From assembly GCA_964023285.1 (NCBI GenBank), contig CAXIEN010000093.1, positions 2,311,739-2,375,738 on the forward strand: 64,000 nt of DNA, given 5' to 3'. This DNA is from Larinioides sclopetarius (Eukaryota). This document shows, in pieces, positions 39,150 through 63,798 of the stretch. Each line of letters starts with the position of its first letter. Position 1 is the first letter of the stretch. The translations under genes were made by a program, and so were the position numbers. The notes beneath the pieces were generated by a model. That model was not told the DNA's origin, made no database searches, and saw nothing but the letters and a program-made list of their open reading frames with translations.

Positions 39150-39228
39150 ATGTATCTTGCTTGCCGGAGTGCTAGGTATCTACATGGACCTGCTGATTCT
39201 AGATCTAGATCGAGAAGTTCAGAAAATG
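39150..39228 (+). CDS. FG-repeat gene, candidate first coding exon (MYLACRSARYLHGPADSRSRSRSSEN + 1 nt), donor ATG|GTAAGT
   Basis: ATG at 39150 and a strong donor. The leftover G plus GT of the next exon gives Gly, in frame with 40781-40828. Confidence 0.45.
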
Positions 39229-39878
39229 GTAAGTGGATGTCTACTAAAACATTTTGGCTGAGCTGTATTTAATGTTAATCAGTTAAGTATTTAACTGATT
39301 ATGTCAAAATGTTTTGTTTTATATTTTCTTATTGAAAAAATATTACAGTCAAACATTCTCTTTGGCAATTCTGGATTTGGGATAATTCTGGATTTTGAAT
39401 CATTTTAATGTTAAGAAATAAATTTAACATCATAAAACACATCATTCAATTCAAAATTAAACAAAAAACTTATTTATTACTTGTTTTCTTTGATTTATAA
39501 ACATACTTAATATTATTCCTTTCTTATTTTAACATTTAAACAAAACATTTAATTTAAAATGAGTTGCTTTATTAATTTTGGTTTTTGATTAAGTAATTTT
39601 TATTTCATGTATTGCCACTATATACAACTTTGTCTATAATAAAATAAAGTCCCTTGATCAAGTCTTCTTGTTTCTATGTTCAATACTTTCTCTAAGCTGT
39701 CAATTGGCATTTTATTTTCACATGTGTTTTTTCTTTACTCTTCTGCCTATTGGATACCAAAGTTTTTGAGTTCATCAACATCATGCTCTATATTTTGGCA
39801 TCGTATCGTAGCAATGCAGAACTTCAAGGGCATCATCTTCAGCAATTTCTTGTCCTCTTAAATTGATGAACTCAAATA

Positions 39879-40210
39879 TTAAAAAAAATTCAGCTTTTGC
39901 TTTTGAGATCTAAAATCGTTTAAAATATCCAGGGTTTTTTTGTCCTCATAGAATATGATTTCCGGCCACATTTTATCGTCACGGGCAGAATTTAATTTCA
40001 TGCTTAAGCTACATTTCAAATTGTAACATTTCAATAACTTTTGAAGCATTTCCTCTCCATTTAGAAAGCTGATCATTTCTTTGAGAAATTCTGATTTGTA
40101 TTGGCATTTTAATGCCCGCCTGTAATATCTCATTCTTTCTGGGCAAATTCTCTCTGAGAGCCAGAAGGGGAGAGGAAGTTTGCACATGCATCTTATTTGT
40201 TAACATTTTT
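39879..40210 (-). pseudogene. hAT-family transposase C-terminal (dimerisation-domain-like) remnant
   Basis: 102-codon minus-strand ORF with ...FWLSERICPERMRYYRRAL.......FLKEMISFLNGE. Compare the hATC consensus ...SSA.SER.FS......RR..L......L.FL..N. An overlapping second frame suggests a frameshift; there are no flanking TIRs. Confidence 0.35.
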
Positions 40211-40780
40211 TACATTTTGGACTAGTTCATTTTGAGTGTTGGGGAGAGGGTAAGATATTGTTACTCCAGAATTTGTTACTATAGCTCCCCCTCCTGCAAT
40301 ACCTACGTCACACATCGTTGTACATGTGATTAGATCCTTTCCTTTCCCAGATGGCTTTTGCTGATCTGGGCACCAATTTTTTAGATAAAAGTTAGGATTT
40401 TTTTTGGAGGAATTACAAAATTAAAAGAGGGCCGGATTTGCGAAGTTTGACTGTAATTTAAAAAAAAGAAAAGGAAGTTTTTTATTGTAAGCATTATTAA
40501 AAGAGAAATATGCAATTATTTTAGGACTATATCTAACACTGAAAGTGTGTTTACCTTAGAGTTACTTAACTGTAAAATTAGTTTGCTCCCCCCCTTCTCC
40601 TCCCCTTCCCCTAACTGGAATTTGTTAACTGAGTCAAAGAACTTCACAATTACATAACAAATACAAGGGTTGTATTTCTTGTTTTCATGTTCTATTGTTC
40701 TGTAAATTTTCATCTGAAATAATTTGTTAAGCTCATTATTATTTTTTTCTTTGTAATTTGTTATGAAATCATTTAAACAG

Positions 40781-40828
40781 GTTTTGATGCATTGGATTCT
40801 GCTATTGCTGACTTTTTAGCAGATGGAG
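40781..40828 (+). CDS. FG-repeat gene exon: (G)FDALDSAIADFLADG
   Basis: Acceptor tttaaacag|, donor GAG|GTAATA. Only one open frame. Phase 1 in and 1 out. Confidence 0.5.
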
Positions 40829-41876
40829 GTAATAATTTACTTTTTTTATTTAGAGTTGTGAGAATGCAATTTTATTAGCCCAATTTTAACTTAGCTGTTT
40901 TATTTTATAATAAATTTAGATCACTTTTTCTGTTTTTGGAATGTGTTTTCATTTAAATTCAATGAAGAACCTTAAAGATGGTTGAAATATTTATGGATTC
41001 CACATAATTTTTATGTCAAATTATAGCGTCTGTGAAGAATGTCTTTGTTTTAATTTTTGTTTTGTTAAATTTCGATTATTTGATGCACATTTGGGGTACA
41101 GGCAAATCGATTAATCGGTTAAACCATATATTTAATGTTCTTTTCCTTTTTTTACAGAAAAAAACTTTTATAAATAAGTTCTTAAGTAATTAATCCAGTG
41201 GAATTTTTAGTAGTTACATTAGATTCTGCAGTGGACAGATCTGCAACAAAATGTTTAAGCTCTTCTGCTCGAAACTCTGCTCCAGCTGCAGGATCCCCTG
41301 TATAAAGTCCTGCATCTCCTGAATATATTAGATTTAGGCGTGAGAAAGTTTTCCAATACGAAACGATATTTGTAGTGCGTAATTTTGCGTGATTCATATT
41401 ATTAAAAATAATTTGTTGATTTCTGTTGTTTGACAGTTTTTTTTTTTTTAAAAATTATTTAAATCTCGCATCTGAAAATTGTGAGAATATGAGAATTGTC
41501 AATGAAACAAGTTATTTGAAAAATATTGAACGCCGATCTCAGTCGCTACTTGCCGAAATTTACAATCGAGATTAGTCAGTGTTCTAAATGAATTTTTACC
41601 TTGTGAATGATTGCTTGGCGCTCATGTTTGTTTTCATTTATCTCTGTTTTAGTTATTCTTTCAGTGTTCTGTGAAAATTTTGTTTCCCACAAATTTTTAA
41701 AATTCGATACTCAGAAATGTAATGACTAACTTTGTGTCTGTTATAGTTTTGTGACTTACTATAAATTTATATTGTTGAAAAATGGGAAACATTCAAAAGA
41801 AGTCAAAATTTTATTTGTAAAAAAAAATCTCTATATCATTTGATATTTAGTTCTGTCATCAAACTAAAAAGAAAAC

Positions 41877-41886
41877 ATGAGTGATG
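41877..41886 (+). CDS. Alternative candidate first coding exon ATGAGTGATG|GTAAGT (MSD + 1 nt). Would splice in frame to 44440, giving MSDDFLDADIPESEL...
   Basis: Consensus donor immediately after ATG AGT GAT G. Phase 1 matches exon 44440-44538. Confidence 0.35.
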
Positions 41887-42499
41887 GTAAGTTCCCATTG
41901 CAGTTACTATTTAAGGATAATTTTATTTGCTAATTTTATGTGAATCTTGGATCTGTAAATTCTTTTGGATTTTGTGTTGTGATCTTTGCAAGTTTGTCTG
42001 TCCACTCATTGTCGTTTCTACCCACCTAGACCATGACCTAATACAAATCATAATTCTTTAGAAGGATTTTAAATTTAAGATTGATTTTGTGGTTTCAATT
42101 TAAAGATTCTACTGCCATCAAAACAATCTTCAATCATTAAAAATATTTAATTTTTTCTATATTCAGTGTGCTTGATATCTTTTGTAAATCATTTGTTATC
42201 TACTTGAATCTGCTAGTGTTTAGTTCTTCAACCTGGATTTCAGTTCTTTGGTGATTCCTTTCTTCCCTTAAGTATATGCCCAATACACTCCCTTAACTTT
42301 CCCATCTCCTTTGGAACTGTTGGTATAAATTTTCACTTTTTTATTCAAATCAAGTTTGGCACACAGCTATTCGAAAATTATTCTTAAAATGTTTTTTTCT
42401 GTTTTTAAAAATTTATAGTTCTTCATATTTTGATGATGCCGTTATCAATGTTCAGATTTTACCTACGCTTCAAGATGGTAAATTTCTCTACTTTGGTAT

Positions 42500-43265
42500 C
42501 TGTCATTACAGGGTGACGACAAAACCGGGAAATCAGGGATTTCAGGGAGAAGTCAGGGAATTTTATGGATCTGGAAAAATCAGGGAGAAGTCAGGGAAAT
42601 TCATAAAAATTCCTAAAAATCAGGGGAAATTGCAGATAGGAACATTTTACACCGAGCATGTGCTCGATCGATGGTTAATTTAAAAAGTTATGAGCAAACA
42701 TTAATTATTTGTTATTTTGAGTTATCTATAAATTACTATCTTATGTTTAAAATTATTTGTAATAGTAAATGGAATTTTTGCAATTTCTGTAATAAAATAT
42801 TCTAAAATATATATTATTAAGTATGTATTATTATTATACTTTATTTGTTGCAATATGTTATTCTCATACTCATGCAAAGACCATTAATTAGTTATAAAAC
42901 CGTTTAAATGTTCTGAAATAAAATCTTAATAACCTTTATTCTTAATATAATCTAACTTCTATTGCAAAGTATAATGTTAAAATTGTCAGCATTTTTTACT
43001 TATAATAAATATTAATATGCTGTTTTAATATTTTTTTAGAATGTTCATTCCTTTAAAAAAAAAACTAAATTTAAAAAAAATGTTTATTTTTTTCTTATTG
43101 AATGACCGGTAAAAGTGTTTTTATAGTATATTGTGCATATGCAGTTATTCTGAGTAGGAAGAAAGCGAGGAAACTAATAAAATTCAGTAGTCATAAATCG
43201 GAAATTTTATTAGTTTAGTCAGGGAAAAGTCAGGGAAATTTGTTTCAAAGATTCTGTAGTCACCT
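42500..43265. mobile_element. Repeat family with terminal TCAGGGA(A/G)A subrepeats, copy B
   Basis: See copy A. Lies in an intron of the FG-repeat gene. Confidence 0.75.
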
Positions 43266-44439
43266 TGCATTAGCTCTTTGAGCAAACAACCCAGCAGCAT
43301 CTTCATAGCTTTCCTATACAGTATTGTAGGTCTTATTTATGTTTTTTAAACCTTGTTTCTGTATTTGCAATATTTTTTTATCTTTAGTTGTTCTATGACA
43401 TCTGAACAATATAAGAATGATTTTCTGTTGCACAAGAAAGACATATTTGCTTTAAATCCTTGAATCTAATTTCTAATGGTGATTTAGAATAGCACTTAGA
43501 TTTGTTTTGTATTTTGATTTTTTTCTTTCAAAAAGCTTAAAATGTAGAACAAGATAGGTGTAAATTGTTTATTTCATTTAGGATTTGGTTAAGGCAAAAA
43601 ATAAAAAATCACTTTAAGAAATTATTGTACTTATCAATTTAACAATGTTTCAATGGGTGTTACCAGAGATGGAACCAGGAAAACAATTATTTTCTTGTTG
43701 TGGAAATTTTTTGTAATGGGTATTCATCTGTAATTAATAAATAATAATCTTCCAAGAATATGAGACCAATTTCATTGTGCTTGTTCTCCTCATACAGCAG
43801 GTCAGGTTCTCCTTTTGAGGAGACCATTCCCACTTGTCAAGGAAATCAGCCACCCGTCCCCTTGGGTACAATTTAGCATTATTCCTGGATGTTTCTCTAA
43901 GTATGATATTTCACATTCAGATTATCAGATATGTGGGGCTTTATGTGATCGCACCATTCCAGATCCTTGCAAGTTGGCTGTATTTCCATTCAAAGTAACT
44001 TTTGTTTGGCGTACATTTATAATTATTTATTTCATTTAGGATTTGGAATTTCCTTTTCTATTTTTTTAAAAATTTATATATGTGTAAGTTATTGTACGAA
44101 TTTTAATCTTGCACTTTTTGAAATATCTGCTCACTTTTAGTGTAGTGACCAATAAAAGAAAATGAAGCATAACATCAATTCATATATACTTCTATAAGTT
44201 AACTGCCATTTCTGAAGTTTTTGAATGTGTGATCTTTAATTTTTTGAGGAGTTTTAATATTAATCTTGTACAGTTGATTTTTATTTAAAAAATGCTTAAA
44301 TATTTAGTATTTGGAAAATCTTCTCTTGTGCTGTTTTTTAAAGGAAATCTCAAAATTTATTTGTTTTGCTTTTTGTATTTAAAATGATTGTCTTGTCTTT
44401 AAAATCACCATCACTGCCATAATTGGAATCTTTTTACAG

Positions 44440-44538
44440 ATTTTTTAGATGCTGATATTCCTGAGTCGGAACTAATCATTCCACCAGAGCCAAGCATGGC
44501 CATCAGCAATCCCATCAGCATGCCACCATCAGCATTTA
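44440..44538 (+). CDS. FG-repeat gene exon: (D)FLDADIPESELIIPPEPSMAISNPISMPPSAF
   Basis: Acceptor ctttttacag|, donor TTTA|GTAAGA. Single open frame. Phase 1 in and 1 out. Confidence 0.65.
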
Positions 44539-47204
44539 GTAAGAAATGCTTTTATTAGTTGAAGTTTTTAATATTTGAGTATGGCTGTCTTTTTTTTCTG
44601 GTCATGAATGAGATAATATCCATATATTAGACCTTATTGACAAATATACTTCATTTAATTTTAGTTTCATTAAAAAATTTTTGATTGGGAAATTATCTTT
44701 AAACCACTTTTTCATTAATGCACTAAGGATGGGCATTCATGAAAAAATTTGAAAAGCCTTATATTATTCATTTCTTTAGCTTCTCATTCTCTACACTCTT
44801 TAGCATTGATAGTTGATTCTTAAATGATAACGAGGGTATTTTATTATGAAGGGTAGAAGTTTGGAACCATATGTTGTGATTAAATTTTATACTAAATTCT
44901 GCCTTTTATATCATCATAATATATTTTGTAAAATTTTTTACCAGACATTTCTTGAAACAGTTGGCTTATAAGTAAAACTAAAGCTTAAACTAACAGTTGT
45001 AGAAATTGCACACCATTGTTGTGGTCGCAACATAAACAGTGAGCATGTGCAGTTTCAGAAATTTCTATCCTGGATGTCAACTACAGTGCTATTTTAAAGA
45101 TGTTTTAACAATTTTTTTCTTATTTATTTTCTGTTGGGGAAAATGTTATTTGTTGATCTATAGATAAAAGTTAAATAAGTGTTTTCTAGTTTATATAATA
45201 TTTATAGTAAATTAAAATATCAAATAGTAATTCTCATTAACTTACACAAACATGCTTTATAGAATAAATTCTCCATGAAATGGACTCTAGATTTTCATTG
45301 AAATTTTTATTGCCATTTCCCCAAAGTAATTTATTTTAAAAACAAAAAATTTAAATTTAAAGTAAAAGTTTTGCCAACTGGACACCCATGCTTTCCTTTT
45401 TTTAATCAAAATCAAATCATTAAAGGGAACTTGGAAGTACAAAAACTATTTATTTGATCGTATTCTAGCAGATTTATTAATTTCTGAAACAGAACCAGAT
45501 CCTTTTCGATTAATAGCTTTAGAGTAGAATAGTGGTTGAATTTATTTTTAACCAATACCATATATGAGTGAAAAGGATATATGGACTTAACTACTGTGTT
45601 CAGTTTAAAAATAAATTGACATAATATAAACCAAATATTAAAAAAATGATAAAGCATGGTAATAATATAAAGTAACCAATATAGATGAAATTTTATCGAA
45701 AAATAATCTAGATATGGAAAAAATATGAACTTTGTAAAAATTTTTTAGCTTCTTCATTTTTATATTAATTTTGCACTGGAACTTCATTAATGTATTACCT
45801 CTTTACAGTGTCATACTACAGGATGCAGTGGGAATGTTCATGATCCTTTACAAAAATCAATGCATTTATTTCTCTTTTTTAAATCAAATATGATGATAAG
45901 AAGAAAGGGGAGATAATCCCTTGGCACCATTTTCCATTACTGTGGGCTAGCTTTTAATTGTTTAAGTCAATTACTCTCAATCGGACCCTTTGCCAGAATG
46001 CTATTTATTCTGGGCTCATTTTTTCACTAGAGGGACAAATCAGAGTTTAAGAATTTGAAAGAACAGATTTTATTTTTTACCTTGTATCCAAACTAATAAA
46101 AGGAAAGCACTGAAATTGCCAAACAATTCGCCTTTGAGATTTTGCTGTATCTCCTAGAGACCTGTTTTTGGAATTATGTTAGTTTATCTGTGAATGCAGT
46201 GTGTGGTTGCAAACACTTAGAAAAAATTTCATATGTAGTCATAACTCCAAAATTGAAGATTCCTATCAAATTTTGGATGAGATCCATCTATGAGAAATTC
46301 ATCAGTGTGCATCTGGGCAGGATAACTGAAAAACACAAAAAACTAGATGGCTGAAATTTTACATATTGTTTTATCAACAGAGTGTTAAATTTTTATAAAT
46401 GACTCAACCGAATCTGTCAAAGGGTTGACCAGTTCTTAGTCTGTATATCAACGGCGTACCTGCAATTTCTGCTGCCTGCTCTGGATTTGGAAAATGAAAC
46501 CCTTTCATAAGGTGGATAGGCCACATAAATTAACCAAATCAAAGACAAAACCAAGAAAAAAGAGACAGGAAAAAAAGAGAACTTTTAAAATAACACAAAA
46601 ATTTATAATGTAATTTTATTATGTAATTATGTTTAACAGATATTGCAAGGCAAAGTTACTAGAGAGTATTAGGTTAGGCTCACACAGGGAGCAGATGCGT
46701 TGATGACGTATCCTTGGCCCTTATTGACATTGCTTTGCTTCGTAGCAATGCTATGTAATTGAATAAGTATTATGTTAGAAATCTTTTTTAAAAACTGAGA
46801 ACTTCCTGTTGTCAGAATTTTTGTGGAAACATTGTTTAATCAGTCTTACATTATGAAAGAATCAAAATTTAGATAGTTTTATCGAAAATTTTATTAAAAA
46901 TCAGTGATCTTTCTGATATGAATTTTAGGAAAAAAATAAGGAGGTCCCTAATCTTTAATTTTTAGAAACAGCTTTAGAAGAGAAAGTGGATTTTTTGGAA
47001 ATTGAAGAATTGTGAATAACTTTATTGCAATTATAAAATAAAGTGTTTCACTTTGTAGTAAAAAAACAAAAATGATATCTTTGAAACAAATTATAAAAGT
47101 AATTTGTAATTTTGAATAAATATAAACACAAATAATTTTCTATTTTTTCACTATTTCTTTCATTGCTAAATTCGCAATTGAATTATACCCATATATATAT
47201 TTTG

Positions 47205-49230
47205 CAGGGGTGTCCATTCTCCCTAGACGTAAGGCTCACCCCCCCCCAAAAAATAGTTGACCCCCCTTCTGCCAAAGCCAACTGTATACAATAATTGACT
47301 TTTCCCCACTCAGAGATACATTTTCATATGATAAAAATAACAACTATTAGTTGGAAAAATCATTTCTTTCAATATACCAAATGAAAATTATTCAAATTTT
47401 AAATTTTCTTTCAATATACCAAATGAAAATTATTCAAATTTTAAATTCATCACAAAAATTAAAAACAGAAAAAAATTAAGAAAAACCATAAAATTGGTTA
47501 GTTATAAAACTGGAAATTAAATTCAAAACATGCATTTCCTCACCTTCAAGATTACGTATAATTATGTACTTCAAGTAGCTTTTTAACTAAATTCGTACTT
47601 AATCTAACTACTTAATGGTATATTAAATCTTTTAATGAACGGTTCTGTTATTTAACAATAAAGCTTTAGTGCATAGTTTCTCAGAGGGTTAACAATTAGC
47701 CAAATGAAAAAATTCTGAAACAGTACAGGACTAATCATCCATGTACTTCATAAAAATCTTTTTTCACGCGTTATAAAATGCAAAATTAATCCGTGATAAT
47801 ATAGACTAAATATAACCGTTTCACATTAAGATAAAAAACAAATTGATAAATTTTCTAGAAAAACTTTGTCGAATTTTTTGTTTGTTTGTTTATTTATTTA
47901 TTCTAAAAATATTTGCATATTTTATCCATGTGATATTTAAATTAATAAAAAATAACATTAAATAAGGATAGTTTTAAATTTATCTACGAATTATTATAAT
48001 TGCATCAGTAGTATATTTCATAATATTAAATCATTCCCGCTATAAAAGTGCCAAAGTCGAGCCATTGTAAATTGCTTACATGCGATAGAGCACTCTAGTG
48101 ATAGTTTTTTCTTAACTTTCTGGAAGAAATTTTCAGTTGAAACTTTTCGAATGATCTAAAACTGTTATACTCTTCATACATTTTCATACAACTGAAAAAT
48201 TTGGGGTTTCAAAGTTCTTCCCTAGGAATTCTTGTCCTATAAAACTGTTATGGGTTTGATTTAATGCATAATTTCTGAAAGCGAATTTCATAAATATAAA
48301 GCTCATACTATTTTATTGGTGCCTTTAGAGTTACAATCGACAAAAGTTGTGTTACTTTTTTCTGTCCTGTTTTGGAAAAAAATAAATCAGCAAATTAATA
48401 AGTCTAATTTTTTGACTTGATGGAAATGATTGATGCAAATTTCTTCCTTGATTCTATTTTCTTTTTCAAACTATTTGAGAAATTGGAAAGAATTAATAAT
48501 AGTTATTTAACTATTATTAATTCCGTGATATATTACTTACCTGATATCAAGAATAAGTTGGTCTTCAGAAGTTATAGTTGAAGTTTTTCCACTGTATGGC
48601 TTCTATTGATCACTTCCACTTCTATTGTTTTAAATTTTATATCAATATTATTTATGTTCAGTCCACTTATCGTAATTGATGATCACATTGCACATTAACT
48701 CCAAGCATTTGTATTTATAAGGAGTTTCTTTCTTAGCCATGGTTGATACTGATCACTTATAAAATTAAGCTGAAATTAAAACAAGATTCTGTTTCCGTGA
48801 ATGAGCTATGACTTTGAGTACACACAAGTGATGTTTGATTCGAGCACGTGAATTAATCCTCCAAAATCCTACTACCCTTTTTCTTTGAAGTGAGTGTAAT
48901 CCGATGTATCTTTGGCCGGATTTCTGCTTTTTGTTATTTTGTAGAAAAATTCTTTTTTTTCTCTCTCTCTCTTTCTCAAAATTCTATTCCCTTGCTGATT
49001 TCCGGCTCCCTCCCCCATCGAACCATTTTATCTAGCTGAGATCACGACTATCTCTCAATTCCACTTCTTTCAGCTTTATATTAATATAAGAATTAATTTA
49101 TACAATTATTTTTAAATGATATAATACAGTTTTGAAATAATCTATACAATAGTTGAATGATTTTTTGAGCCCCCCCCAGAAATTTCAATGGCGCAGTCTG
49201 TGCCATGTCTTTCCCTTGTGGGCACCCCTG
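47205..49230. mobile_element. Possible hAT-like non-autonomous element (about 2.0 kb) with 12-bp terminal inverted repeats CAGGGGTG(T/C)CCA and subterminal poly-C/poly-G tracts. Imperfect target-site duplication, roughly TATATT.
   Basis: 47205 caggggtgtccattctccc...ctcacccccccccaaaaaata. 49150-49230 ccccccccagaaatttcaatggcgcag...ttgtgggcacccctg (reverse complement caggggtgcccacaa). Flanks atattttg| and |tatattgc. Confidence 0.4.
47348..47440. repeat. Tandem direct repeat, about 45 bp x 2
   Basis: tttctttcaatataccaaatgaaaattattcaaattttaaatt occurs twice consecutively. Confidence 0.9.
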
Positions 49231-49802
49231 TATATTGCATCCTTAATTTATACTTATCGCATTTCCACACAAACAAAAAAAATATCTCTACAATAATTTT
49301 TTATCACAAAATTCTTAATAGGATAATACACCCTATACAACATGCATGCTTTATTAATATTTATTTAATTTTCACACACATATATAAATTCAAAATTTTC
49401 AAACAATGTGATGAACAGTATTTACACTATTAATAATTAATTGCAAAAATGTTTATTTTATGTTTTAAATTGGATAACTTTTATAACAAAACTTATATAC
49501 CTTTTATTAGGACAAGACTGTAATCACATTTTAGAAGGCTGACAATGTGAAGCATTCCACTTCTTGGCTCTCTTTAGCTGTTCTCTTTGAAATTTGTTTG
49601 TTTCTAGCTTTTGCATTGTTAAACACATCTTTCATTCTGCATTTGAAAATCTAAATTTTTCTGACATCCTGATCTTTTGGAAAGGAATGAAAAGAAACAT
49701 TTGTGACTTTGGAATTTTTCAAATGCATACAGCCAGGCATTTGCACAGCTTAAAATGTTTCCTTGAAACTATAACATATGGCTCTAAAAAGAGCTGTTTT
49801 TA

Positions 49803-52555: not shown

Positions 52556-53174
52556 TGGAAATTAGTGGTGTTCTACTATATAAATCTTCGTCTACATGTC
52601 TCATTTTGCCACCCCTCTCAAAGTGCTATATCCGGGGCAGAATACCCCCATTTTTGCACATGAATAAAATTTAGAATGTGGTATTGTCACAAGAATTTTA
52701 GATCTGTATCAAATTTTAAATCCAATAGGATAAAAGGAAGATGTCAAAATATCCTTAGTCAGTTTTTTTCACTGTTCAACAAAATACAAAATGTGCCATA
52801 TTGTGTACATTAAGGAAAAAGTAGAAAGGCCAACACCTTATGCTATATTTTAAACACTAAATTCTTATATTCTTTTATACAGAAAAAAGTTTTGGTCTCG
52901 CTTGTTTCTATTTGGACCCCACACCTCCTAAAGCCGGCCTTGTTACTCTACCACTGTTATCCTAATTGCATATTCTTATCTGTAACTATCGATATCCTCT
53001 GGGGCCAACTGACTAATTTTGTGAAGTGTATTATTTGTCATTTGATTTTGAATTATATTTTCATGGAAGAATGGTTTATTATTTGTTAATATCATATTTT
53101 TGAACAATTTTATTAAAAATATAAATGTATTATGCAATATATTTTCAATCATGTTATAGTTTGATTATAAACAG

Positions 53175-53258
53175 ATTTTGACTCGGAACTTTCAGCTCCG
53201 GAAATGAGCCATGATTTCCTTTCTGAAGCCTCTAGTGCAATGTCTGAACCTGGTCATG
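53175..53258 (+). CDS. FG-repeat gene exon: (N)FDSELSAPEMSHDFLSEASSAMSEPGH
   Basis: Acceptor tataaacag|, donor CATG|GTAAGT. Phase 1 in and 1 out. Same ATTTTGA start and DF motif as the other N-terminal exons. Confidence 0.65.
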
Positions 53259-53504
53259 GTAAGTATAATATGTTTTTTATTATAATATTGATTTATTTTA
53301 ATTATTGTCATTTGTTAATACAGTAGAACCCTGCTATTCTAAACTAATTGGAACATCTGCATGTTTGGTTTATAAAAAATTCGGATTGCCCGAAATTCTG
53401 ATAAAATGGAAATGAAAAAATTATCTTCTAAGTACTCAGTGCTAGTATATCTTCAAATCTTTTATTCAAAAGCAATAGAAAGAGAATATATCTCCCTTTT
53501 TCAT

Positions 53505-55840
53505 TAGAATAATGGATCCATGCTGAAAAAGTACAGGGTGGTTATAATTAAAGTCACCCTATTCAAGCCTCTCTAGAATCCGATCTGCTTGTCGGATTTG
53601 AATGAAACTTTATATATACGTTATATGGATTATGGTAAAAATAGTTCAAATTTTGACCACCAGGGGGAATTGTGACGCCTGAAGAAGGACAAAAAAAATC
53701 TGTCTGAATCATTAAAATTTATTCAATTTCAGAATGTGCTCTATAGATATCAATTATGTGTTGAAAGTGCATTATAGTGTGTTCAATGGTAGCGCAAAGA
53801 CACTCTCAATTTCAGCAACATGGCGTGTAATGCTGGCTTTCAACTCGGGTAAAGTCCCAATTCCTTCTCCATAAACCCGATCTTTTAGAAAACCTCACAA
53901 CCAGAAATCACAGGGATTTAAGTTGAGTGAACGAAAAGGCCAGGCATCTGGAAAAGCTCTGGATATTACACAATTATCACTAACTAAAGTTAGCAAGAAG
54001 CAGTTCTTTGATTTGGCGCCCATTGTCAGGAGTTGCTCCATCTTGCATGAAGACATTGTTCTGCAAACATTGCCATTCCTGTAAAGCAGGTATGACTTGC
54101 TATCTGTTGCATATCACACCCACATTTTTGAATTCCTCGTCAATTATTTTCTTGTTTTGTTTAAATATATTTCTTATCTTGACTTGAGTTTTCCAGCAAT
54201 TCTGCATCGAATTGGAAACGGATGAGCATTTGAACCCGGTAATCTTTACCTTTTACAAAATCTGACTTAGCTCGCTGACGTTGACAGCTCTCTCTGATTT
54301 GCCAATGATGATTCCTGTGGATTGTGACGTTTCACAAATGGATGCTATATAATCTTCAGATCTCCACTCACGCTATATTAGACCGAGAAATGACTGCTGT
54401 GTGATTATAGGCTGATAAAAATGGTTGGTGAAGCAGCAAGTTGCTGCCGAATGATTTTCTTTTCAACATTTCATCTTGCATTTGTTTTCCAGTTGTATTT
54501 TTCTAGTAGACCGTTTCATTCCTTAAAGTTTAAAGATTGTACTATTTGATTTTCTCAGTAACCTGCCTCGTAGGTAATATTTTTTCCTCTGGAATAAATG
54601 TTATGAAATTCTTGCATATTTTAAGGTGTTTAATTTTTTTCTATTGCTTGTTTTTTCTATGAAATAAATAGATTGTTTTTATTACCTGACTGTTTATTTC
54701 CTCTGCATTGCACACACCTTAATGTTAGTTTTTTCTAGATTAAAATTTGTTAAATTATAATTAAAACTTTCGGTTGAGCAATTCAGTAACGCTCCATTGC
54801 GTGTTAAACTTTTGGTAGTTTGTCTTAAATGCAGGTTTTTAGCAATAACTCGCTATAACCTGACACTGTCTAAAGATTTCACTGTACCATTCACTCATGA
54901 CAGAGCATCTTTTAGGATCTTGAGGAGTGAGAGTTACAAGAAAAATGGTCCAAGGATAAAATCAGCATTAAATCCACGTAATCAGAATGCAGTGGTTATT
55001 GGTGCAGGTTATTAGGAGGTGAGGCACCCATAAGCGGCAATTTTGGCTATTCGCAGCTCCATCTAAAGAGAAGTCCACATCATTTGAGCATTAAATTTTC
55101 CACGCCCACATGTCATCAAAAGCCATTTTTTCCAAAAATTGAGGAGCAAATTCATAGTGTGTTTGGTGGTCTTCAGGTTGTAGCATTTGCACCAAGTGAA
55201 TCTTTATATAGATATAGATACCATTTTTTAATGGACTGCAAAATTTTTTGTACTATCAACCAACGAATCGCCAACTCAATTAACACCGATGGACCACTTG
55301 CTGAAGAATAGCAGTAACTGAAGGCCCTTTGAAACACAGCAGTAACAACTTCTTTGGCAGTTTCATTCGCAACAGGTTACCGCCCTCTTCCTGGCAGCAC
55401 ATTAGAATCTACAGTCTCTTCAAATTTCATTATCATCTTCTTCAAACCAATCTTCGGCATGGGCCCTTTTTGCAATCCCTTCGAATGACAATATTCACAC
55501 AGTGCAGCTAAGTTATTGCTGCCGTTCTGATAAAACAGTTTTACCAGTAAAGCTCAATCTTTCTTTTGTAAGGGCATGGTTAACGATAACAAAGACATGC
55601 AGAAGGATTTTCTGGCTCTGAATGCAAGTCTCTTTATAGGTTCGACTAATTTTCATAAGGAATTCTGGAAAATTGCCCCTTGTGGTCAAAATGTAACTAT
55701 TTTTATTGCAAAACTCTTTTCCCTATGATCCATATAACGTATATACTAAGTTTCATCAAAATCCGAGAAGCAGAATAGGTTCTAGAGAGGTCTGAATAGG
55801 GTCACTAATTATAACCACTTGTACTTTTGTTTTTAGTATG
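53505..55840 (-). mobile_element. Tc1/mariner-superfamily element (about 2.3 kb) with long (about 190-bp) terminal inverted repeats. Carries a degenerate transposase on the minus strand and directly abuts MITE family-M copy 3.
   Basis: 53520-53700 (gtacagggtggttataattaaagtcaccctattcaagcctctctagaatccgatctgcttgtcggatttgaatgaaac...) is the reverse complement of 55670-55838 at roughly 85% identity. Confidence 0.75.
53890..54080 (-). pseudogene. Transposase remnant of the long-TIR element
   Basis: The minus-strand translation gives two motifs in different frames, which implies a frameshift. QVIPALQEWQCLQNNVFMQDGATPDNGRQIKELLLANF matches the FQQDGAPPH.. motif of mariner-like transposases. AFPDAWPFRSLNLNPCDFWLW matches FPDRWIGR...WPPRSPDLTPLDFFLWG. 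Confidence 0.6.
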
Positions 55841-56863
55841 CAGTACAACGCCGATAATCGGGAACGCGACAATTCCGAATTATCTGATTTTCTGAATTTT
55901 TTGGTTATTGACTTAATTTTACTAAGAAAATGCATTTAGCTGTTGAATAATCGATAAATTACATAAAATATGTATTGCTATTTTAAAGCATTTATTATTT
56001 TTTTCCTGACAATTTTATTATTCACAGAAGAAGTAAAAAATAGAGTAAAAATAAACGTATTCCGATTGCCGGCCGAAATTGGAACATAAATCTTGAATGA
56101 GAGAGGTGTGGGATTTTTAATAACCATGGCCATTATCCCCTAGTCCCATGTTAGGCACAATAAAGTTCGTTCTAAAAAAAGAATTCCTTAAAATTGATTA
56201 TAAAAAGCACCAAGGAGAACGAGAACAAAGTAAGCGTTCGAATCTGCTGGACTGACAATGAAAATAAAAAGCAACAAACCAGGCTTTTGGAACGCTGGTT
56301 GCCAAAAGGATGCATTTAAGAAATATCAAAATACTTGAGGGCTTGAATGAAAGGTGATCAGATGTTTCTTATTGTTTAAGACAAGATAAAAGGGTAGGTA
56401 GTAATGTTGGGAATAATTATATTTAATTTGGACCACACACAGAGAATATTTCTGAAGGATATGTAATGCTCGGGTTCCCTTCAAGCGGCCACTGCTTGAA
56501 GGATGCCCAAGAAAAGTAGTTATGGGTAGTTTTGGAATTTAAAAGTAGAAAATTATTAGAACTTCAAAAATAAGTACTTATTTTACATAAATCGTGACTT
56601 TTGAGTATGTATAAAATATATTTATTTTGTAACCAAAGCGAATGAATACGGCCGGAACATAAAATATTGGGAAAACGTTCCTCAAGATTAGATTTCTGCC
56701 GCCGGCGTCTATGATTCGTTCCTCGCAGCCCTTTATCCACTGCCAACTTGAGATGGTAAATTTTTTAGAAGAAAAAAAATGTAGACGAAATAAAATTTTG
56801 GTTAAATTTTTAATGGCTAAAAATGTCCGGTTTTTTGAAGTCCGAATTATCGGCGTCATACTG
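55841..56863. mobile_element. Non-autonomous Tc1/mariner-type element, family M copy 3 (1023 bp)
   Basis: Termini CAGTACAACGCCGATAATCGGGAAC ... GTCCGAATTATCGGCGTCATACTG. Reverse complement of the right end is CAGTATGACGCCGATAATTCGGAC, giving an about 22-bp TIR. Confidence 0.85.
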
Positions 56864-57456
56864 TATTTAACCCTTTCTGACACGGGCCATAAAGTTCTTT
56901 GAAATATGATACAAAAACATGGATGTGTTTAGTTTATTGCCTTGACATAAATTCTACAATTTTTTTTTCGTTTTATTTTTTCTGGGGGGACGTTTCTTTT
57001 GAGGATGCTTCCCTCTTTTAAAACTCCTCTTTGATACAGTCACCTTGAGAAACTCACAAAAGTATTGTTGAAACTTGAAAATTGAAATTTCAAGAAATTT
57101 GGACAAATTTTTTGAGTAATTTTGATAAAATTGAAAACTTCCAAGGCTCACATTAAATTTCCTATTTCAAATTTTCCCACTTTTCAACAATATTCTGTGA
57201 ATAGGCATATTTTTTAGAAAATTTTAAAGTCGTTGTCCTTTTTTGTAACCACCGCGCAAAAAAGGGTTAATTCTTTTCAGGTAAATATAATTTTTGGAAA
57301 TGAAATTGTTTTGGATTAGCTAGGTTTCATACTGTAATTTTTATCAGAATATGATTGGAATATATGAAGTATTTTAAATTGCAGAGTAACTTTATTTTAA
57401 ATAACTTCTGAATAAATGTGGATGTTATTAGTTTTATTATTTTTGAACTTTTAGCT

Positions 57457-57507
57457 AAGAACAGGAACGATGCTTTCCTTTTTGGAGCTGCTTCTGCTCG
57501 TCATGGT
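57457..57507 (+). CDS. FG-repeat gene exon: (A)KNRNDAFLFGAASARH
   Basis: Acceptor gaacttttag|, donor CATG|GTAGGT. Single open frame, phase 1. Confidence 0.7.
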
Positions 57508-57600
57508 AGGTATAATATGGTTCTTAATACTGTAATTAATGTTCTTATCAGTCTGAAATTTTTCACTGAGATGAGAATTCAACAATTTGTTTCAATTTAG

Positions 57601-57717
57601 CTCCTCTGAAATTTCAACGATTTGGTGCTGCTCCTAGAGCATTTGGTGCTGCTTCTCAAGCATTTGGTGCTGCTTCTCAAGCATTTGGTGGGTTGCAGTC
57701 AGCGACAATACGTCCAG
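57601..57717 (+). CDS. FG-repeat gene exon: (A)PLKFQRFGAAPRAFGAASQAFGAASQAFGGLQSATIRP
   Basis: Acceptor caatttag|, donor CCAG|GTAAGT. Single open frame. Contains a 21-nt codon repeat gcatttggtgctgcttctcaa x2. Confidence 0.8.
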
Positions 57718-58921
57718 GTAAGTGTTGTATTCATTATAGTTTCTTTTAATAGGATGATAGTTGTAAAAACCCTATCTAGATTTCGAAATTGCATTGGAGG
57801 TCTTCTTTTTAAAAAATTATAGCTTCTATTTTTTAAAGTATAGCTCCAAATAGATTGTAGTAAAAACTGTGAGAAATGTACTCACAGAATTTATGCTCTT
57901 TGTAAACAGGAAGCTGTCGTTTGAGATGACTATACAAATTGCTAGTTCGGCTGTTTTAATGAAAAGTGAGAAAACTAATGGTAGTAAAAGTAATAAAATG
58001 TAGTAAATTAAAGTATAAGTGCTTTTATTTTTGGAATTAAATGGCCTGAAATAAATTATCACTTGTATCCACTTTTTTTAATTTACTTAATGAAATTCTA
58101 CAAAAAGTGTGAAAATGTTTTTGTCATTTTTATCCATTTGATTTTTTTGGAAATACCAGTTATTTATATTTCATAGTTGAAGTAATTTCTCTTTTTATTG
58201 ATAATGATGTACAAGAACACTTGTGTGTTCAATTGATTGTTGTTATTATTATCTTTTTAAAATATTTTCTTAGGATGATTTCTTTTAGAAAAATTTGAGT
58301 ATTATTTAATTTCACAAAATCCTGTTTAAAATATCTACAACTGTCTTGGTTCTCCTAATTCACTATATCTGATTGAGAGGATTTTCAATTCTTTTATAAG
58401 ATTTGAAATAAAATTATATTTATTTAGAATTATTGTTCTAATTTTATTACAAAAATATTGTTCTCATAAATGATAATAATGATATCTGAGGGTATATTCA
58501 ATTCAGCTTAGTGGAATAATTATTTTCTAGATTTAAATAGTTACTTTTGCTTTAAAGCTTGATTATGAAATATTTAAATGTTGATCCATTTTTATATTAT
58601 ATTGTTGCTTTATTTTCGATTTTTAAGAATTGAGATACAGTAGAATTGAATTGAGTGTCTATTATCCAAACACCCTTTCTCTGCTGCCAGTCTTAAGCCT
58701 GGATAAAGTATGAAAGAAATTTTTGCACACTGAATTTTTAAAAATCTACTTATTAATGTCTAAATTTGTTTAAAAGACATTAATTTGCTGCAGTGAAAGA
58801 TATTACACATAAAAAATATATATTTCAACTGTTAGAGAGTATAGTATTAAGTATTTTCCACCTTATGTATATATATGAATTTGTTGTAAGGTCTGTTTTT
58901 TTTTGTATATTTCCCTAAAAG

Positions 58922-59076
58922 CAGCCACATTTGTGCCTGATTTATCCAATATGCCTGCATACAGTTTTGCATCTACAGAAGAATTTAAAGCTCAAACATT
59001 TGAATCATTTAGTTTTGTAGACACTCAAGCAAGTTTACTTCAACTTGAGAGGGTCCACTGCATTAAGAGTAAAAAG
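58922..59076 (+). CDS. FG-repeat gene exon: (A)ATFVPDLSNMPAYSFASTEEFKAQTFESFSFVDTQASLLQLERVHCIKSKK
   Basis: Acceptor ttccctaaaag|, donor AAAAAG|GTAAGT. Phase 1 in and 0 out. Non-repetitive, globular-looking sequence. Confidence 0.8.
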
Positions 59077-59801
59077 GTAAGTGGTTTTCAGCTAAGTATT
59101 TTGCAGTTTACATCATACAATCGTTATTTAAGAATTAACTAACTTTAGCTATATTAGTGCTGTCTAGAGTTAAGTTTTCTGGTAATTACTGACCTTTTGG
59201 AAACTTTATTTTACTTGATTTCTTTTATGTTTGTAAGAATAGAATTTTTTGTCCATTTTTCATTTGCGTGATAATACAGTATTTAAATTTTTCCAGATCT
59301 TAATACTCGGTTTATTACTTATTTATTCATGTTTTGATTCCATTTGTGTGTCAGAACCGGAATGAATTTCTATGGATAATGATTATAAGATTTCTTTATA
59401 TTTATTATTTTGAGTTAGATTCCTAAACACACACACCAAAATAATAATTTTTACAAATTCTATTTTTTAGTTTGTTATTATAAGTGTGTTTCAAGAATTA
59501 TTTGTAATAATTATTTTACTTGCTTTCAAAATAGATGTTTGAGAAATCTTGGTAATCACATTTTCCCCAAATTATTTCTATTTTAAAATAGTTATTGATG
59601 CAGATATGTAGAAAAATATGTAGTCAGATGTTTTAAGTTAGTTAACTAAATTGAATTTCAAATTTTTAAAAGTTGTGATAGGGGAAAAAATGATCTTTAG
59701 CCTATAAATTAAAAGGCGAATTGTGCAATATTTGTAAATTTAAGATAATTAAATTTTTATATCTTTTAAAAAATTACAACTTTTTTATAATTTTATTTTA
59801 G

Positions 59802-59936
59802 ATGCAGTTTTTGAATATAACAAGTATGGCATTAATTTATAACTCTAACATGAAAAATGTTGAGGATGTTTATCGAGTAACTGTTCAGAAATATGCAGAT
59901 GAAGTAAAGACTTTTGATCCAGAATTCATTTTAAAG
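59802..59936 (+). CDS. FG-repeat gene exon: MQFLNITSMALIYNSNMKNVEDVYRVTVQKYADEVKTFDPEFILK
   Basis: Acceptor ttttattttag|, donor TTAAAG|GTATGG. 45 codons, phase 0 in and out. Confidence 0.75.
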
Positions 59937-60568
59937 GTATGGATATAAACATACATCTTTTTGTATACATTACATATTTGTGTAATGCATTTCTAGTACT
60001 TTTTAAAATTGTAGTTCTAAATAATGATTCATATTTTGACTTGAATTACTTAAAAACATGCAGAAATTTTTATATATTTGTGATGTTAACTTTTCTTCCC
60101 AATTATTTGGAGTCCAAATATTAAAGAGAATGATATTTCCTTTAATTTCAATTATTTTATATAAAAAAGTCTTTTTTTAATTAATATGTTCTTATAATGT
60201 TAAAACTTCTTTAAGTATTATATAATGCATTCATGACACGATGCAGCTTTGAGAAGCATATTTTTAGACATATTAACAATTTTTATGGTCTACATAAAGG
60301 CAATGGTTTGTAAATATTAGTCAGCAAATGAACGTTTAAATTGAAAATAGAAGCACTCTAAATATTGAAAACTTGCCAAAAGAAAACATTACTTGTTATT
60401 CTTACAAAAAAAAACTTACAATTGATAAAACATCAAAATATTATAGCTATTTGTAATGAGTGGCACACAAAATAATATAAAAGCTTATAATTTGCTACTT
60501 ATAACCATTTCTTCTGAATTGATAAAATTTATAAATGAAACAGTTTTTTTTCTTTATAAAATCAAATA

Positions 60569-61996
60569 CAGTGAAACCTCTCATAGGAGACCACCCATTA
60601 GACCATAAAAATGCAGTCTTTAAGAGAGATGGTCTCTGAATAGAAGTAATAGGTAATGCAAAGTTTCATGAAATACACACTACAAAGAAAATTATTATTG
60701 AATTAGTTTATTATATTCTATGTCTATACAGCTTTAAAGAGGGAACTGATTGTAGTTTGCTTTGATTTTAACAATTTATCATTAACAATTTTTGTTTCTA
60801 AACATTCTTTGATATCTGAACAAATTATTTATTTTAGTATCCCCTCTAACAGATATTGAGCTTCCTTTTGATATATTAATTTCAGCAAGTGTTTCTTGAC
60901 ATGAAATAGAAACTTTAATTGACGGAAGCTCATCGTCTGAATTAGAATGAGCTCCTAAAAAAAGATTTAAAAAACCTTAATAGTATTATCATTCATTTTA
61001 ATAAATGATTGTAAAATTTATTTTTTAATATAAAATTTTTACCATTAGCCTTACCATTGTCGAGTATAATATGATTCTCCTAGTCTTCAGATAAGTCATC
61101 GTAACACTCAAGAGCTTCCCCATATCCATAAGATTTTGAATCATAATCAACTTCAGCTGCATTTGATAGCTGAATCACTTCATTTTCTAAGGCACTGATA
61201 TCACCAATGGATTTTTCTATGGATACAATTGCTTAGTCTACAAGTTCTGAAGCAATTGACAATTGTTTCTGTCTTTACGTTATCCCATGGACCTTTTATC
61301 CATCGAATAGCATCAAGTACATTGATGAATTTCACAATGTCAGATACATTTTTATTCTTATCTATTACCGAAATGAGCTTTCGTAAAACAAAACGTCTGT
61401 ATTCCAGCTTGAAACGATGTATAATTCCCTGATCGAACGGTTGAATTTTGGATGTCATGTCGTAGGAGCAAGAAATTGAAGTTTTACACTTTTCAGCTGT
61501 GTATCATACAAGTGACATGGAGAATTATCCAAAGAAAGGATATTTTTACCCTGTCAGGTCATATTTTTGTCATAGTCATGTCACCAATTTTAATATGGAG
61601 ATAAATTGGAATCTAGACTAACCCACCCCACCCACCCTGTCGAAAAAGACTCCCTCACTTTGAAGGCGTCTGTTAGTGGGCCAATTCCAGGAAAAAGGGA
61701 CTACAGTCCTTCTCCTTTCTTTCATAATCATAATGACATTAAACACTGTAATGCACAACAACCAGCTATATCCACCTAAGCAAGTTAGTGGGAGAGATGA
61801 CCTTTTGAATTTCGATATTTCTCTATGCAAAGAAAAGTAATCCCATACTTCGGTTTTAAAATGGTCTTTCAGGGAAGGAGACTGAAAATATGGTCCTTTA
61901 ATGGAGGAAAATTAACATTGAGCCTATAGCCAAAAATTATAGACCAGAAATAAATAGGTCTGTATGAGAGGTGGTCTTTCAGGGAGGTTTCACTGT
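60569..61996 (-). mobile_element. pogo/Tigger-like miniature element (1428 bp) with CAGTGAAACCTC... terminal inverted repeats and flanking TA dinucleotides
   Basis: Left ta|CAGTGAAACCTCTCATAGGAGACCACC (60569-). Right GGTGGTCTTTCAGGGAGGTTTCACTG|ta (-61996). The internal minus-strand ORF has pogo DDE_1 motifs. Confidence 0.7.
61201..61560 (-). pseudogene. pogo/Tigger (DDE_1, CENP-B-like) transposase remnant with a frameshift
   Basis: Minus-strand translation gives GKNILSLDNSPCHLYDTQLKSVKLQFLAPTT, then after a 1-nt frame change (M)TSKIQPFDQGIIHRFKLEYRR...TIVNCF. Compare the Tigger consensus ILLLDN...H......I.L.FLPPNTTS.LQPLDQGVI..FK..Y. Confidence 0.7.
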
Positions 61997-63741
61997 ATTT
62001 TACACCATTATTTAGAATGCTGGAATATACTCAGCTAAAGGAGAAGCTGAACCAGTTAAGACAAATATTCAATGAATATTGATATAGCTTTAAAAATCAG
62101 AAGTGAAGTTGTAATCTAAAATATATAAATAAGAGCATTCTTTTTTGTGAGGATGAATTTAATACCTAAAAAATTATGTCAGTTTTAGTTTATTTTGAAG
62201 ATTGAGATACTCCAACAAAATACTGTTTTACTCCTGTAATGTCACCTCCTAGTAATGTGGGTTTTAGGTTGGAAAGAGATATTTATAGAAGTTTTTATTG
62301 GATGCCGGAGAATTAGTAGACAATGGCCCTAGAGGACCATGACCATTTTGGTGACAAATTGAAGGTTCTTAAAAATAGAAATTTCGTTCATTTTCTATTA
62401 AGAACAGATTTGTTGAAAATGCTTTTGATGATTCTATATGACATCTCATTCTGTCAAAAAAGGTATAAAAATCCCAAGGTACTGAGATCTTTCAATGCTT
62501 TTGGAGTGCAAACATGTTTTGATATCTTTCATATCTCTCTTTGAAGTTTTGTCTGTATTGTGAGCTGGTTAGCTGATAGATGCTAAGTGTTTTTAAAAGT
62601 ACTTTTACTATTATTAGCAGTGGTTGGCTGTCCTATGTCACTAATTTGTGTTAGTGCTATTTTTCTGTTTCATGTGATTCACATTTTCTGGAATATTTGT
62701 AAATAAAGTGTAAATCTCCTTTACCCTCCTTCTTCAGCTGTTTTCACCCTGCACTCAGACGATTTTCTTAACAATATTTACCATCTGTTTAAATGAAGTA
62801 TCAGGGTTCATACTACTCCTGAAATTTTTAAAAAACTCCTGAATTTTGCCTTTATTTTCTAAGGGCCCTGAAAACTCCCGAAAATTGTGTTTTCTCTCCT
62901 GATATTTCTTTTTGAGTCCTGAAAAGTTACAATCAAAGAGCAAAAAATGACAAAACATTAAAATATAGTGTTTCTCTTTTTTTTCTCTCTTTCTTATTGA
63001 CAGAAAGACTTCTGTTTCTTTGCTTTCATATACAATAATTATGCTGTAGGAAAGTGCTTATTTATTGATGATTAAAAGGATATAAAGGTTGGCTGCTAAA
63101 TGTCGCAGAATTCCAATACAAAGCATGTTCAGCATGTAATCGAATCTTTGATGTATCTTATTTTAGATGAAACAACTTTACAATATCATAATTGTTGTAC
63201 AAAGCATCAAAAGTCTTTGAGAAATAATGAAAAGAAGAATAAATTATAAAACTTTTTTCTGCTCAACACAGCATTCAAAATTTTCCTCTAGCCAATTAAG
63301 TACTTCAAATCAATCTCTAAGTGATATGCCTATTTCCACAAACTTACTTCATGAATCTATGAATGTTAAACTGTCTCGGTGGAAAAGCTGAAATTTTATG
63401 GGCTTTAAGTTTGCATTATTCATACAGATCGTATGAAACTGTAAATTATATTTTTAAGACAATATGTTTTCAGATAGTGAGGTGGCCCAAAACTGTTGAG
63501 AAAAATGTTGCCCATATATTGATTTTTATCATAGGGCCTTATTCTTTATCTTAACTGAAGGATAGACTGAAAAGCAAAAAAAAGCACTGTTCTTTGATGA
63601 AATAAACTGGATTGCTACACAATACTTGGGCCCATGATAAAATACACGTGTCCAGAAAATGGTTAATAATTTTTTCAAAAAATGGAAGGCGATAAGGTTG
63701 CATTTTCTTCTGTTTCAAAATTAATTACAAAATTTGTCAAC

Positions 63742-63798
63742 AGATGGTACAGGCGATTGGGAAAACTATTAAAAAGTTACGAAGTTTGTTACCACAAA
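63742..63798 (+). CDS. Possible further exon of the same gene: MVQAIGKTIKKLRSLLPQK (phase 0/0). Weak donor (AAG|GTTCTG).
   Basis: Acceptor tttgtcaacag|. 19 codons open and phase-compatible with 59802-59936. Confidence 0.2.

Follow-up and report, generated by a model that had tools for sequence, protein, structure and literature searches.

Our analysis of a 64,000-nucleotide stretch of the genome of the spider Larinioides sclopetarius (contig CAXIEN010000093.1, positions 2,311,739 to 2,375,738 of the forward strand; hereafter the window) indicates that positions 25735-59936 of its + strand very probably hold the first ten coding exons of an orthologue of TEP1 (telomerase protein component 1), a predicted 1,068 nt or 356 codons. 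An initial annotation of this DNA, made from the sequence alone, had described seven small scattered exons and could not place their product in any family. We are highly confident that these exons are part of the 5′ end of this known gene. TEP1 is defined as a TROVE-vWA-NADase-NACHT-WD40 protein (PMC7916137; bioRxiv 10.64898/2026.09.21.753143), and the window would contain its N-terminal region up to the start of the TROVE domain.

Results

Relationship to TEP1 proteins

The tarsier TEP1-like protein (P0005) matched the window product over 96 residues across exons 58922-59076 and 59802-59936 (BLASTP, E 1e-9). The match includes the motif MP.Y.(F/L)…EE, which is also present in sharks, frogs and invertebrates. 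A profile of 16 TEP1 pre-TROVE sequences aligned with the product in hhalign with 96.4 % probability (E 1.2e-9), and this alignment was colinear and unbroken at the 59076/59802 splice junction. The sequence MPAYSF lies 84 residues before EFILK in the product, and it was aligned with the corresponding motif of mammals, sharks, a spider and a horseshoe crab.

An exhaustive HMMER search with the pre-TROVE profile returned 259 TEP1-type proteins, the full-length ones measuring 2,300-2,950 aa. The closest of the 259 to the window product was P0174, which is GFS98075.1, “telomerase protein component 1 [Nephila pilipes]”. The exon model of the initial annotation matched this protein with an E value of 6e-35, while residues 1-356 of the ten-exon product aligned with its residues 26-364 with an E value of 1e-43 (BLASTP). 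Taken exon by exon, the similarity to Nephila TEP1 was E 1e-9 for exons 1-2, E 0.03 for exon 3, which is weak, E 5e-17 for exon 9 and E 6e-20 for exon 10. The best named relatives are all annotated as telomerase protein component 1 or 1-like, and they come from Nephila pilipes, Tachypleus tridentatus, Mizuhopecten yessoensis, Tigriopus californicus and Chamberlinius hualienensis; beyond Nephila, these are a horseshoe crab, a scallop, a copepod and a millipede, respectively.

The window was also searched by tblastn with 120 database proteins that included authentic TEP1 fragments, and only these database proteins are used as evidence. About 35 TEP1 proteins matched exon 59802-59936 only, in every case where their TROVE domain begins. 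The product thus carries the N-terminal part of TROVE ending in …(D/E)PEF(I/V)LK. About 85 residues upstream of PEFILK it has the TEP1-specific pre-TROVE motif MP.Y.(F/L), which is absent from Ro60.

The nearest database relatives are annotated TEP1 proteins and not Ro60. Ro60 and bacterial Rsr share the DPEFILK-type TROVE start with the product, but this match covers about 13 residues only (E ~1), and they are without a long N-terminal extension, the MP.Y motif or N-terminal repeats. In these proteins of ~500-600 aa, TROVE begins within ~20 residues of the N-terminus, whereas ~305 residues precede it in the product; an assignment to Ro60/Rsr was rejected.

A related protein of 2,612 aa (P0166), which is probably transcript-derived judging from its 8.3-kb contig, contains TROVE, DUF4062, WD40, Beta-prop_TEP1_2nd and Beta-prop_TEP1_C. 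Because P0166 combines TROVE and DUF4062 with WD40 and the TEP1 propellers, the lineage is that of bona fide TEP1. Two further searches returned no relative. A word-indexed protein search with the 230-aa product of the initial annotation gave no match at E ≤ 0.01; the TEP1 entries of that tool were all ≤ 585 aa, and long TEP1 proteins were apparently invisible to it. A PDB sequence search with exons 9-10 returned only chance matches to Tetrahymena respiratory-chain subunits.

These results bear directly on the reading first proposed for the locus, namely a novel FG-repeat protein of nucleoporin-like character, without a known family and starting at 39150 or 41877. Five FG dipeptides do lie within 42 residues of exons 7-8, their surroundings look disordered, and the product is without any Pfam family at threshold. 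The short FG run in an Ala/Ser-rich, probably disordered context is indeed what the product has in common with FG-nucleoporins. However, the latter have tens of FG and an anchoring domain, whereas five FG, no nucleoporin domain and an adjoining TROVE are found here. The ordered part corresponds to the start of TEP1 TROVE, and over its full length the product runs colinear with an annotated TEP1 of a spider. No nucleoporin Pfam family was found at E ≤ 10 in the product, nor at E ≤ 0.01 in a second scan. In addition, the frame runs upstream of 39150, and homologous exons lie at 25.7 and 33.4 kb. A homology search had been proposed to learn whether a nucleoporin was the nearest homologue; the nearest is TEP1 of Nephila pilipes. 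The homology results rule out the nucleoporin reading, to which we attach a negligible probability, and the gene is best regarded as a TEP1 orthologue.

Gene model

The ten-exon model (Table 1) is free of stops, its phases agree at all junctions and its splice sites are canonical. The gene spans at least 25735-64000 in the window, and about 3 % of this span is coding. Introns 1-9 measure 7.5, 5.6, 1.6, 3.6, 8.6, 4.2, 0.1, 1.2 and 0.7 kb. The mean G+C content is 0.40 in exons and 0.29 in introns, with a local G+C maximum at every exon. The Nephila TEP1 gene takes ~104 kb to encode 808 residues; giant introns are therefore normal for TEP1 in spiders.

Table 1. Predicted exons of the TEP1 gene and other features of the window (positions are those of the window).
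Feature	Position	Strand	Length	Phase	Description
Exon 1	25735-25859	+		0 to 2	From ATG; encodes MMTEVLCKNVFLNGTTLTSTKNKFILEPESRNLFGDEFAIN(S); N-terminal repeat motif 1 (LTSTKNKFI); donor AG/gtaaaa
Exon 2	33383-33507	+		2 to 1	Encodes …ISDMKSGTAVSSRKRKLHSSYLESLTKENALTSTVNKFLPK; N-terminal repeat motif 2 (ENALTSTVNKFL); acceptor tttatag, donor gtaagac
Exon 3	39100-39228	+		1 to 1	Poly-K cluster KKKVCSKKKKKK and SRSRSRS run; acceptor ttcatag at 39099
Exon 4	40781-40828	+	48 nt	1-1	Acidic module GFDALDSAIADFLADG; splice sites, single open frame, G+C 0.40 vs 0.27 in flanks
Exon 5	44440-44538	+	99 nt	1-1	DFLDADIPESELIIPPEPSMAISNPISMPPSAF; splice sites, single open frame, G+C 0.44
Exon 6	53175-53258	+	84 nt	1-1	NFDSELSAPEMSHDFLSEASSAMSEPGH; splice sites, single open frame, G+C 0.45
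Exon 7	57455-57505	+	51 nt	1-1	AKNRNDAFLFGAASARH; acceptor ttttag ending at 57454, donor gtaggt
Exon 8	57601-57717	+	117 nt	1-1	FG/Ala-rich repeat PLKFQRFGAAPRAFGAASQAFGAASQAFGGLQSATIRP; 21-nt tandem array inside
Exon 9	58922-59076	+	155 nt	1 to 0	Conserved pre-TROVE segment with TEP1 motif MPAYSFASTEE; 61 % identity to Nephila TEP1
Exon 10	59802-59936	+	135 nt	0-0	First ~45 TROVE residues, ending …DPEFILK; 71 % identity to Nephila TEP1
Intron 10	59937-64000	+	at least 4,064 nt		Runs off the window
Exon-like segment	42419-42477	+	59 nt		Encodes SSYFDDAVINVQILPTLQDG; AG/GT borders; length not a multiple of 3; off the phase chain
Tc1-type transposon, intron 1	26459-27709	+			Pfam HTH_Tnp_Tc3_2 E 4e-17, DDE_3 E 3e-9
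Element with long terminal inverted repeats, intron 6	53552-55806		2.3 kb		95-nt terminal inverted repeats at 53552-53646 and 55712-55806, 82 % complementary
Pogo/Tigger-type DDE_1 transposase remnant, intron 10	61204-61503	−			Pfam E 8e-14

The range first given for the gene, from 39150, was too short at the 5′ side. The gene begins at 25735, ~13 kb upstream, and two coding exons had been missed. Residues 24-50 of P0174 matched positions 25729-25809 with 52 % identity (tblastn, E 4e-4), and its residues 47-86 matched 33366-33500 with 47 % identity; the phase of exon 2 is compatible with exons 1 and 3. The ATG of exon 1 is preceded, at a distance of 9 nt, by an AG acceptor, which suggests that a non-coding 5′ exon may lie farther upstream. 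The segment 39150-39228, previously taken for an alternative start exon, is the 3′ part of exon 3. The frame of this exon stays open 5′ of its ATG, across a KKKKKK stretch, as far as the acceptor at 39099, and its phase agrees with the donor of exon 2. Since the frame is open to this acceptor and follows two homology-supported exons, 39100-39228 is internal. Poly-K and SR runs occur at the matching position in Nephila TEP1 and P0166. The other start that had been proposed, the 10-nt MSD exon at 41877, is left as a candidate without support.

From 40781 onwards the initial annotation was largely accurate. On re-reading, each of its seven exons is bordered by an AG acceptor and a GT donor, the sequence encodes exactly the peptides that it quoted, and the exons join without a stop in one frame, with phase 1 at the junctions as far as 58922 and phase 0 at 59076/59802. 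Its coordinates hold save for small errors: the exon placed at 57457 begins at 57455, because the acceptor AG lies at 57453-57454 and the quoted peptide, A KNRND…, calls for the two extra bases. A single stop-free frame had been claimed for four exons, which is true of 44440, 57601 and 58922, but exon 57455 has two open frames. More generally, the locus is, as first described, a genuine protein-coding gene of the + strand that is split into tiny exons by large repeat-bearing introns, and its origin is in an arthropod.

Exon 10 was examined beyond the window as well. Many short genomic fragments of open reading frames from other animals (profile matches P0164-P0259) start at profile position 66 and end at position 110, which are the limits of exon 59802-59936. 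This suggests that both intron positions flanking exon 10 are widely conserved. Within 59937-64000, neither tblastn with TEP1 proteins nor inspection by eye found a further TROVE exon.

Weighing of the assignment

Several points weigh against the assignment to TEP1. Of the 442 positions of the TROVE profile, only about 50 fall within the window, and by itself this part stays below the Pfam threshold (exon 10, E 0.056, 13 bits against a cut-off of 23, profile positions 14-65). The vWA, DUF4062/TeTIR, NACHT and WD40 parts would fall beyond the window end. The ten-exon model is a prediction from sequence rather than from transcripts. Neither exons 4-6, with the acidic modules, nor exons 7-8, with the FG repeat, have significant stand-alone homology to Nephila TEP1. 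The Pfam model TEP1_N (PF05386) at E ≤ 10 had no match in the window product or in four other arthropod N-termini, with a control value of 182 bits for P0005. Because PF05386 fails also on arthropod TEP1 proteins that are annotated or have the full domain set, the family-wide features are those from TROVE onward. Furthermore, a loose scan of the same introns for segments with a YAG…GT border pair, a length divisible by three and an open phase-1 frame gave ~6 decoy loci, mostly within repeats. The earlier judgement that the agreement of splice sites, frames and phases was “very unlikely by chance” was overstated, given these in-phase decoys.

A truncated or pseudogenised copy of the gene is compatible with 356 codons as well. 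If the locus were such a duplicate or pseudogene and not the functional TEP1, one would see what is seen here at the 3′ side: only the 5′ end of the gene is visible, intron 10 holds remnants of transposons, and the next 4 kb show no further exon. In contrast, the 356 codons extend over ten exons without a stop or frameshift, and no splice site departs from the canonical form. As one would expect under selection, identity to Nephila TEP1 is 61-71 % in the conserved parts while the linker has diverged. Multi-kb introns are normal for TEP1 in spiders. We consider a nonfunctional copy very unlikely and favor a functional TEP1 gene.

The linker and its mini-exons

The predicted product begins with two (S/T)TxNKF(L/I) motifs (exons 1-2) and a lysine cluster (exon 3), which are followed by an acidic Phe/Asp-rich part (exons 4-6), an Ala/Ser-rich part with the five FG (exons 7-8), the pre-TROVE motif (exon 9) and the TROVE start (exon 10). 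The initial annotation was correct about the order of acidic F/D modules, FG/Ala-rich repeats and ordered domain. The same order of elements, namely N-terminal repeats, poly-K, acidic F/D, Ala/Ser with FG(S/A), MP.Y.F and TROVE, is found in Nephila TEP1 and P0166. Residues 84-259 would form a disordered, fast-evolving linker. With all mini-exons included, the distance from poly-K to MP.Y is ~170 residues, compared with ~165 in Nephila. The middle exons 4-8 are credited because of their position, composition and splice signals and the linker lengths in relatives. For exon 4 the positional counterpart in Nephila is “SDFVESYDAAD”, and exon 6 is aligned with Nephila “SVFDLESENLGSGLRGGFLEDD” inside the long BLASTP alignment.

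The FG repeat was borne out at the DNA level. It is an in-frame tandem array at 57620-57690 with a period of 21 nt, 3.4 copies and 94 % matches (Tandem Repeats Finder). Since the array is 21-nt and in frame, it represents a recent expansion in a region that has FG(S/A) in relatives; the counterparts of exon 8 are VFGS/LFGS repeats in Nephila TEP1 and LAFGSA in P0166.

The acidic mini-exons had been interpreted as products of exon duplication, since all three were said to begin with RTTTTGA. Two of them do; exon 44440 starts with ATTTTTTAGA (ATTTTTT…). The DNA alignment of these exons with their flanks gave a mean column identity of 47 %, which is no meaningful similarity in AT-rich sequence. 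Pairwise comparison of the peptides with composition-preserving shuffles gave p values of 0.12-0.88, that is, no excess, and AGRTTTTGA, with 6 occurrences where 4.2 were expected, shows no enrichment in the window. Exon duplication is thus not supported, and the resemblance among the modules is compositional. The exon-like segment 42419-42477 lies outside the phase chain, as had been observed, by reason of its length. DNA and peptide alignment gave no significant similarity of this segment to the acidic exons, and it may be a module that has decayed or is not used, or it may have arisen by chance. It sits just upstream of the interspersed repeat 42506-43228.

Each of the linker exons 3-8 has a length divisible by three and borders in phase 1, which means that any one of them could be skipped in frame. 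This property raises the question of whether at least one of the mini-exons 40781, 44440, 53175, 57455 and 57601 of the TEP1 gene is an often-skipped cassette, or a chance frame that is never spliced in. Any subset of the five keeps the frame, none has homology when taken alone, the loose criteria yield decoys in the same introns, and fewer F/D modules are present in Nephila and P0166. On the other hand, it is the linker with all five that approaches the Nephila length, and the order of composition, acidic and then Ala/Ser/FG, is that of the relatives. The mini-exons have strong donors, avoid the interspersed repeats and are local G+C peaks, and the 21-nt period of the repeat is in frame. We therefore retain all five in the TEP1 model and regard the loss of one or more as unlikely, though a good deal less so than a nonfunctional locus. 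For the exons as a whole, credibility comes from homology and position rather than from AG/GT borders, open frames and phase.

The N-terminal motifs

Exons 1 and 2 each contain …(K/E)N..L… and then L(T)ST.NKF(L/I), and the same pair is present in Nephila. Vertebrate TEP1 proteins (human, tarsier) have four 30-residue TEP1_N repeats, described by a Pfam model that recognises the vertebrate version only and misses the N-termini of spiders and other arthropods, and the vertebrate repeat contains LSLENRCL. A core pentapeptide (K/E)N(K/R)x(L/I) occurs both in the vertebrate repeats (ENRCL) and in the spider exons (KNKFI, VNKFL), twice in the window product. In 20 full-length TEP1 proteins, the frequency of [KE]N[KR]x[LI] per 1,000 residues was 1.74 upstream of TROVE and 0.09 elsewhere (Fisher p 2e-7, for a motif that was picked after inspection of the data). 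The pentapeptide recurs near the TEP1 N-terminus in flukes, spiders, millipedes, fish and mammals, and is ~20-fold rarer in the remainder of the protein. A kinship of the spider and vertebrate N-terminal repeats through this core is possible, and we regard it as a lead.

Transposable elements and the remainder of the window

The introns had been described as filled with transposons. Shared interspersed repeats, one pair of 95-nt inverted repeats and a DDE_1 fragment agree with this description, but the hAT and mariner identities that had been proposed, including that of 53552-55806, were not confirmed by Pfam on the intron elements. Some decayed open reading frames in the element with long terminal inverted repeats appear to resemble motifs of the Tc1/mariner superfamily.

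The transposase frame of the Tc1-type element in intron 1 is nearly intact and consists of three open reading frames in the same frame with two in-frame stops between them, and it has the same orientation as TEP1. The element is 91 % identical to the Tcb1 transposase of Araneus ventricosus, and its top-ranked named matches are all from spiders (Araneus, Trichonephila and Stegodyphus), the family being abundant in Trichonephila and Stegodyphus. This affinity puts the DNA of the window in a spider, and it agrees with Nephila as the source of the nearest TEP1.

Three interspersed repeat families, with ~75-85 % identity, have copies in the TEP1 introns as well as in DNA that lies upstream of the gene or within it. 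In the first, 42506-43228, which holds the region of the previously described “TCAGGGAAA” motif, matches 30959-31780. In the second, 49797-50608 matches 4551-5523, and in the third, 55886-56864 matches 15569-15957, 16637-16741 and 35034-35439.

Upstream of the gene, a tandem array at 1905-3781 has a period of 375 bp, 5.0 copies and 99 % matches. Each 375-bp copy carries the same open frame of 120 aa, which is of low complexity and hydrophobic, and the array looks like a satellite or a very recent segmental amplification. A tandem duplication at 5295-5461 has a period of 82 bp, 2 copies and 95 % matches. No second gene was identified in the window at 1-25 kb, and an Rfam scan of the whole window found no RNA family, for example no vault RNA. 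Candidates defined by splice sites plus an open reading frame numbered 83 on the + strand and 39 on the − strand in the whole window, which fits a T-rich + strand (negative AT skew). The + strand exon candidates at 1555, 9181, 14332, 15926, 43798, 54189 and 61666 were without support and were treated as noise.

Discussion

The comparison with Nephila pilipes TEP1 (GFS98075.1), which is limited to about residue 50 of TROVE, shows a protein built in the same way and a gene with equally very long introns: the elements follow each other in the same order to a TROVE start ending in DPEFILK. In contrast to the 61-71 % identity in exons 9-10, the overall identity is 34 %. Nephila has one or two acidic F/D modules, whereas the window product has about three, and VFGS/LFGS in Nephila contrasts with a sharper (A)FGAASQ tandem repeat here. 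Vertebrate TEP1 shares the pre-TROVE motif, the TROVE start and the core pentapeptide with the product, and it is without the FG/Ala-rich repeat.

TEP1 binds vault and telomerase RNAs via TROVE and resides in vault caps (PMC7916137; bioRxiv 10.64898/2026.09.21.753143; 10.64898/2026.05.01.722283). The protein has an active TIR-like NADase (DUF4062/TeTIR) directly upstream of a NACHT ATPase, together with WD40 propellers (bioRxiv 10.64898/2026.09.21.753143; 10.64898/2026.05.01.722283). The role of its N-terminal repeats is described as still unclear (PMC7916137 and the two 2026 bioRxiv preprints). The part encoded in the window would comprise the N-terminal, probably disordered region and the beginning of the RNA-binding TROVE domain, with its first helix or helices. 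The remainder of a protein of ~2,500 residues, with the rest of TROVE, vWA, NADase, NACHT and WD40, would follow past the window end. By analogy with vertebrate TEP1, the spider protein may bind a small RNA through TROVE and have a NADase controlled by NACHT. The acidic and FG stretches would be a flexible, rapidly evolving linker, and the poly-K cluster of exon 3 is a candidate nuclear localisation signal.

It is conceivable, although we consider it improbable, that the linker of spider TEP1 has gained short linear motifs that vertebrate TEP1 lacks, namely a young (A)FGAASQ repeat that expands in frame and several acidic F-D modules. Such motifs might tether TEP1 or vault particles to partners that bind FG, for example nuclear transport receptors or the nuclear pore, or promote condensation, and their number might be tuned by skipping of the phase 1-1 mini-exons.

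The main value of our study is a corrected annotation: a seemingly unplaceable gene is, in all likelihood, TEP1. It is an ordinary gene, and nothing here would surprise a specialist. The coupling of an active NADase to NACHT in TEP1 nevertheless makes the phyletic spread of this protein and the variation of its N-terminus topical. Our comparison suggests that a (K/E)N(K/R)x(L/I) core is common to flukes, spiders and mammals despite the limits of PF05386, and that the linker between the N-terminal repeats and TROVE evolves fast via mini-exons and in-frame tandem expansion.

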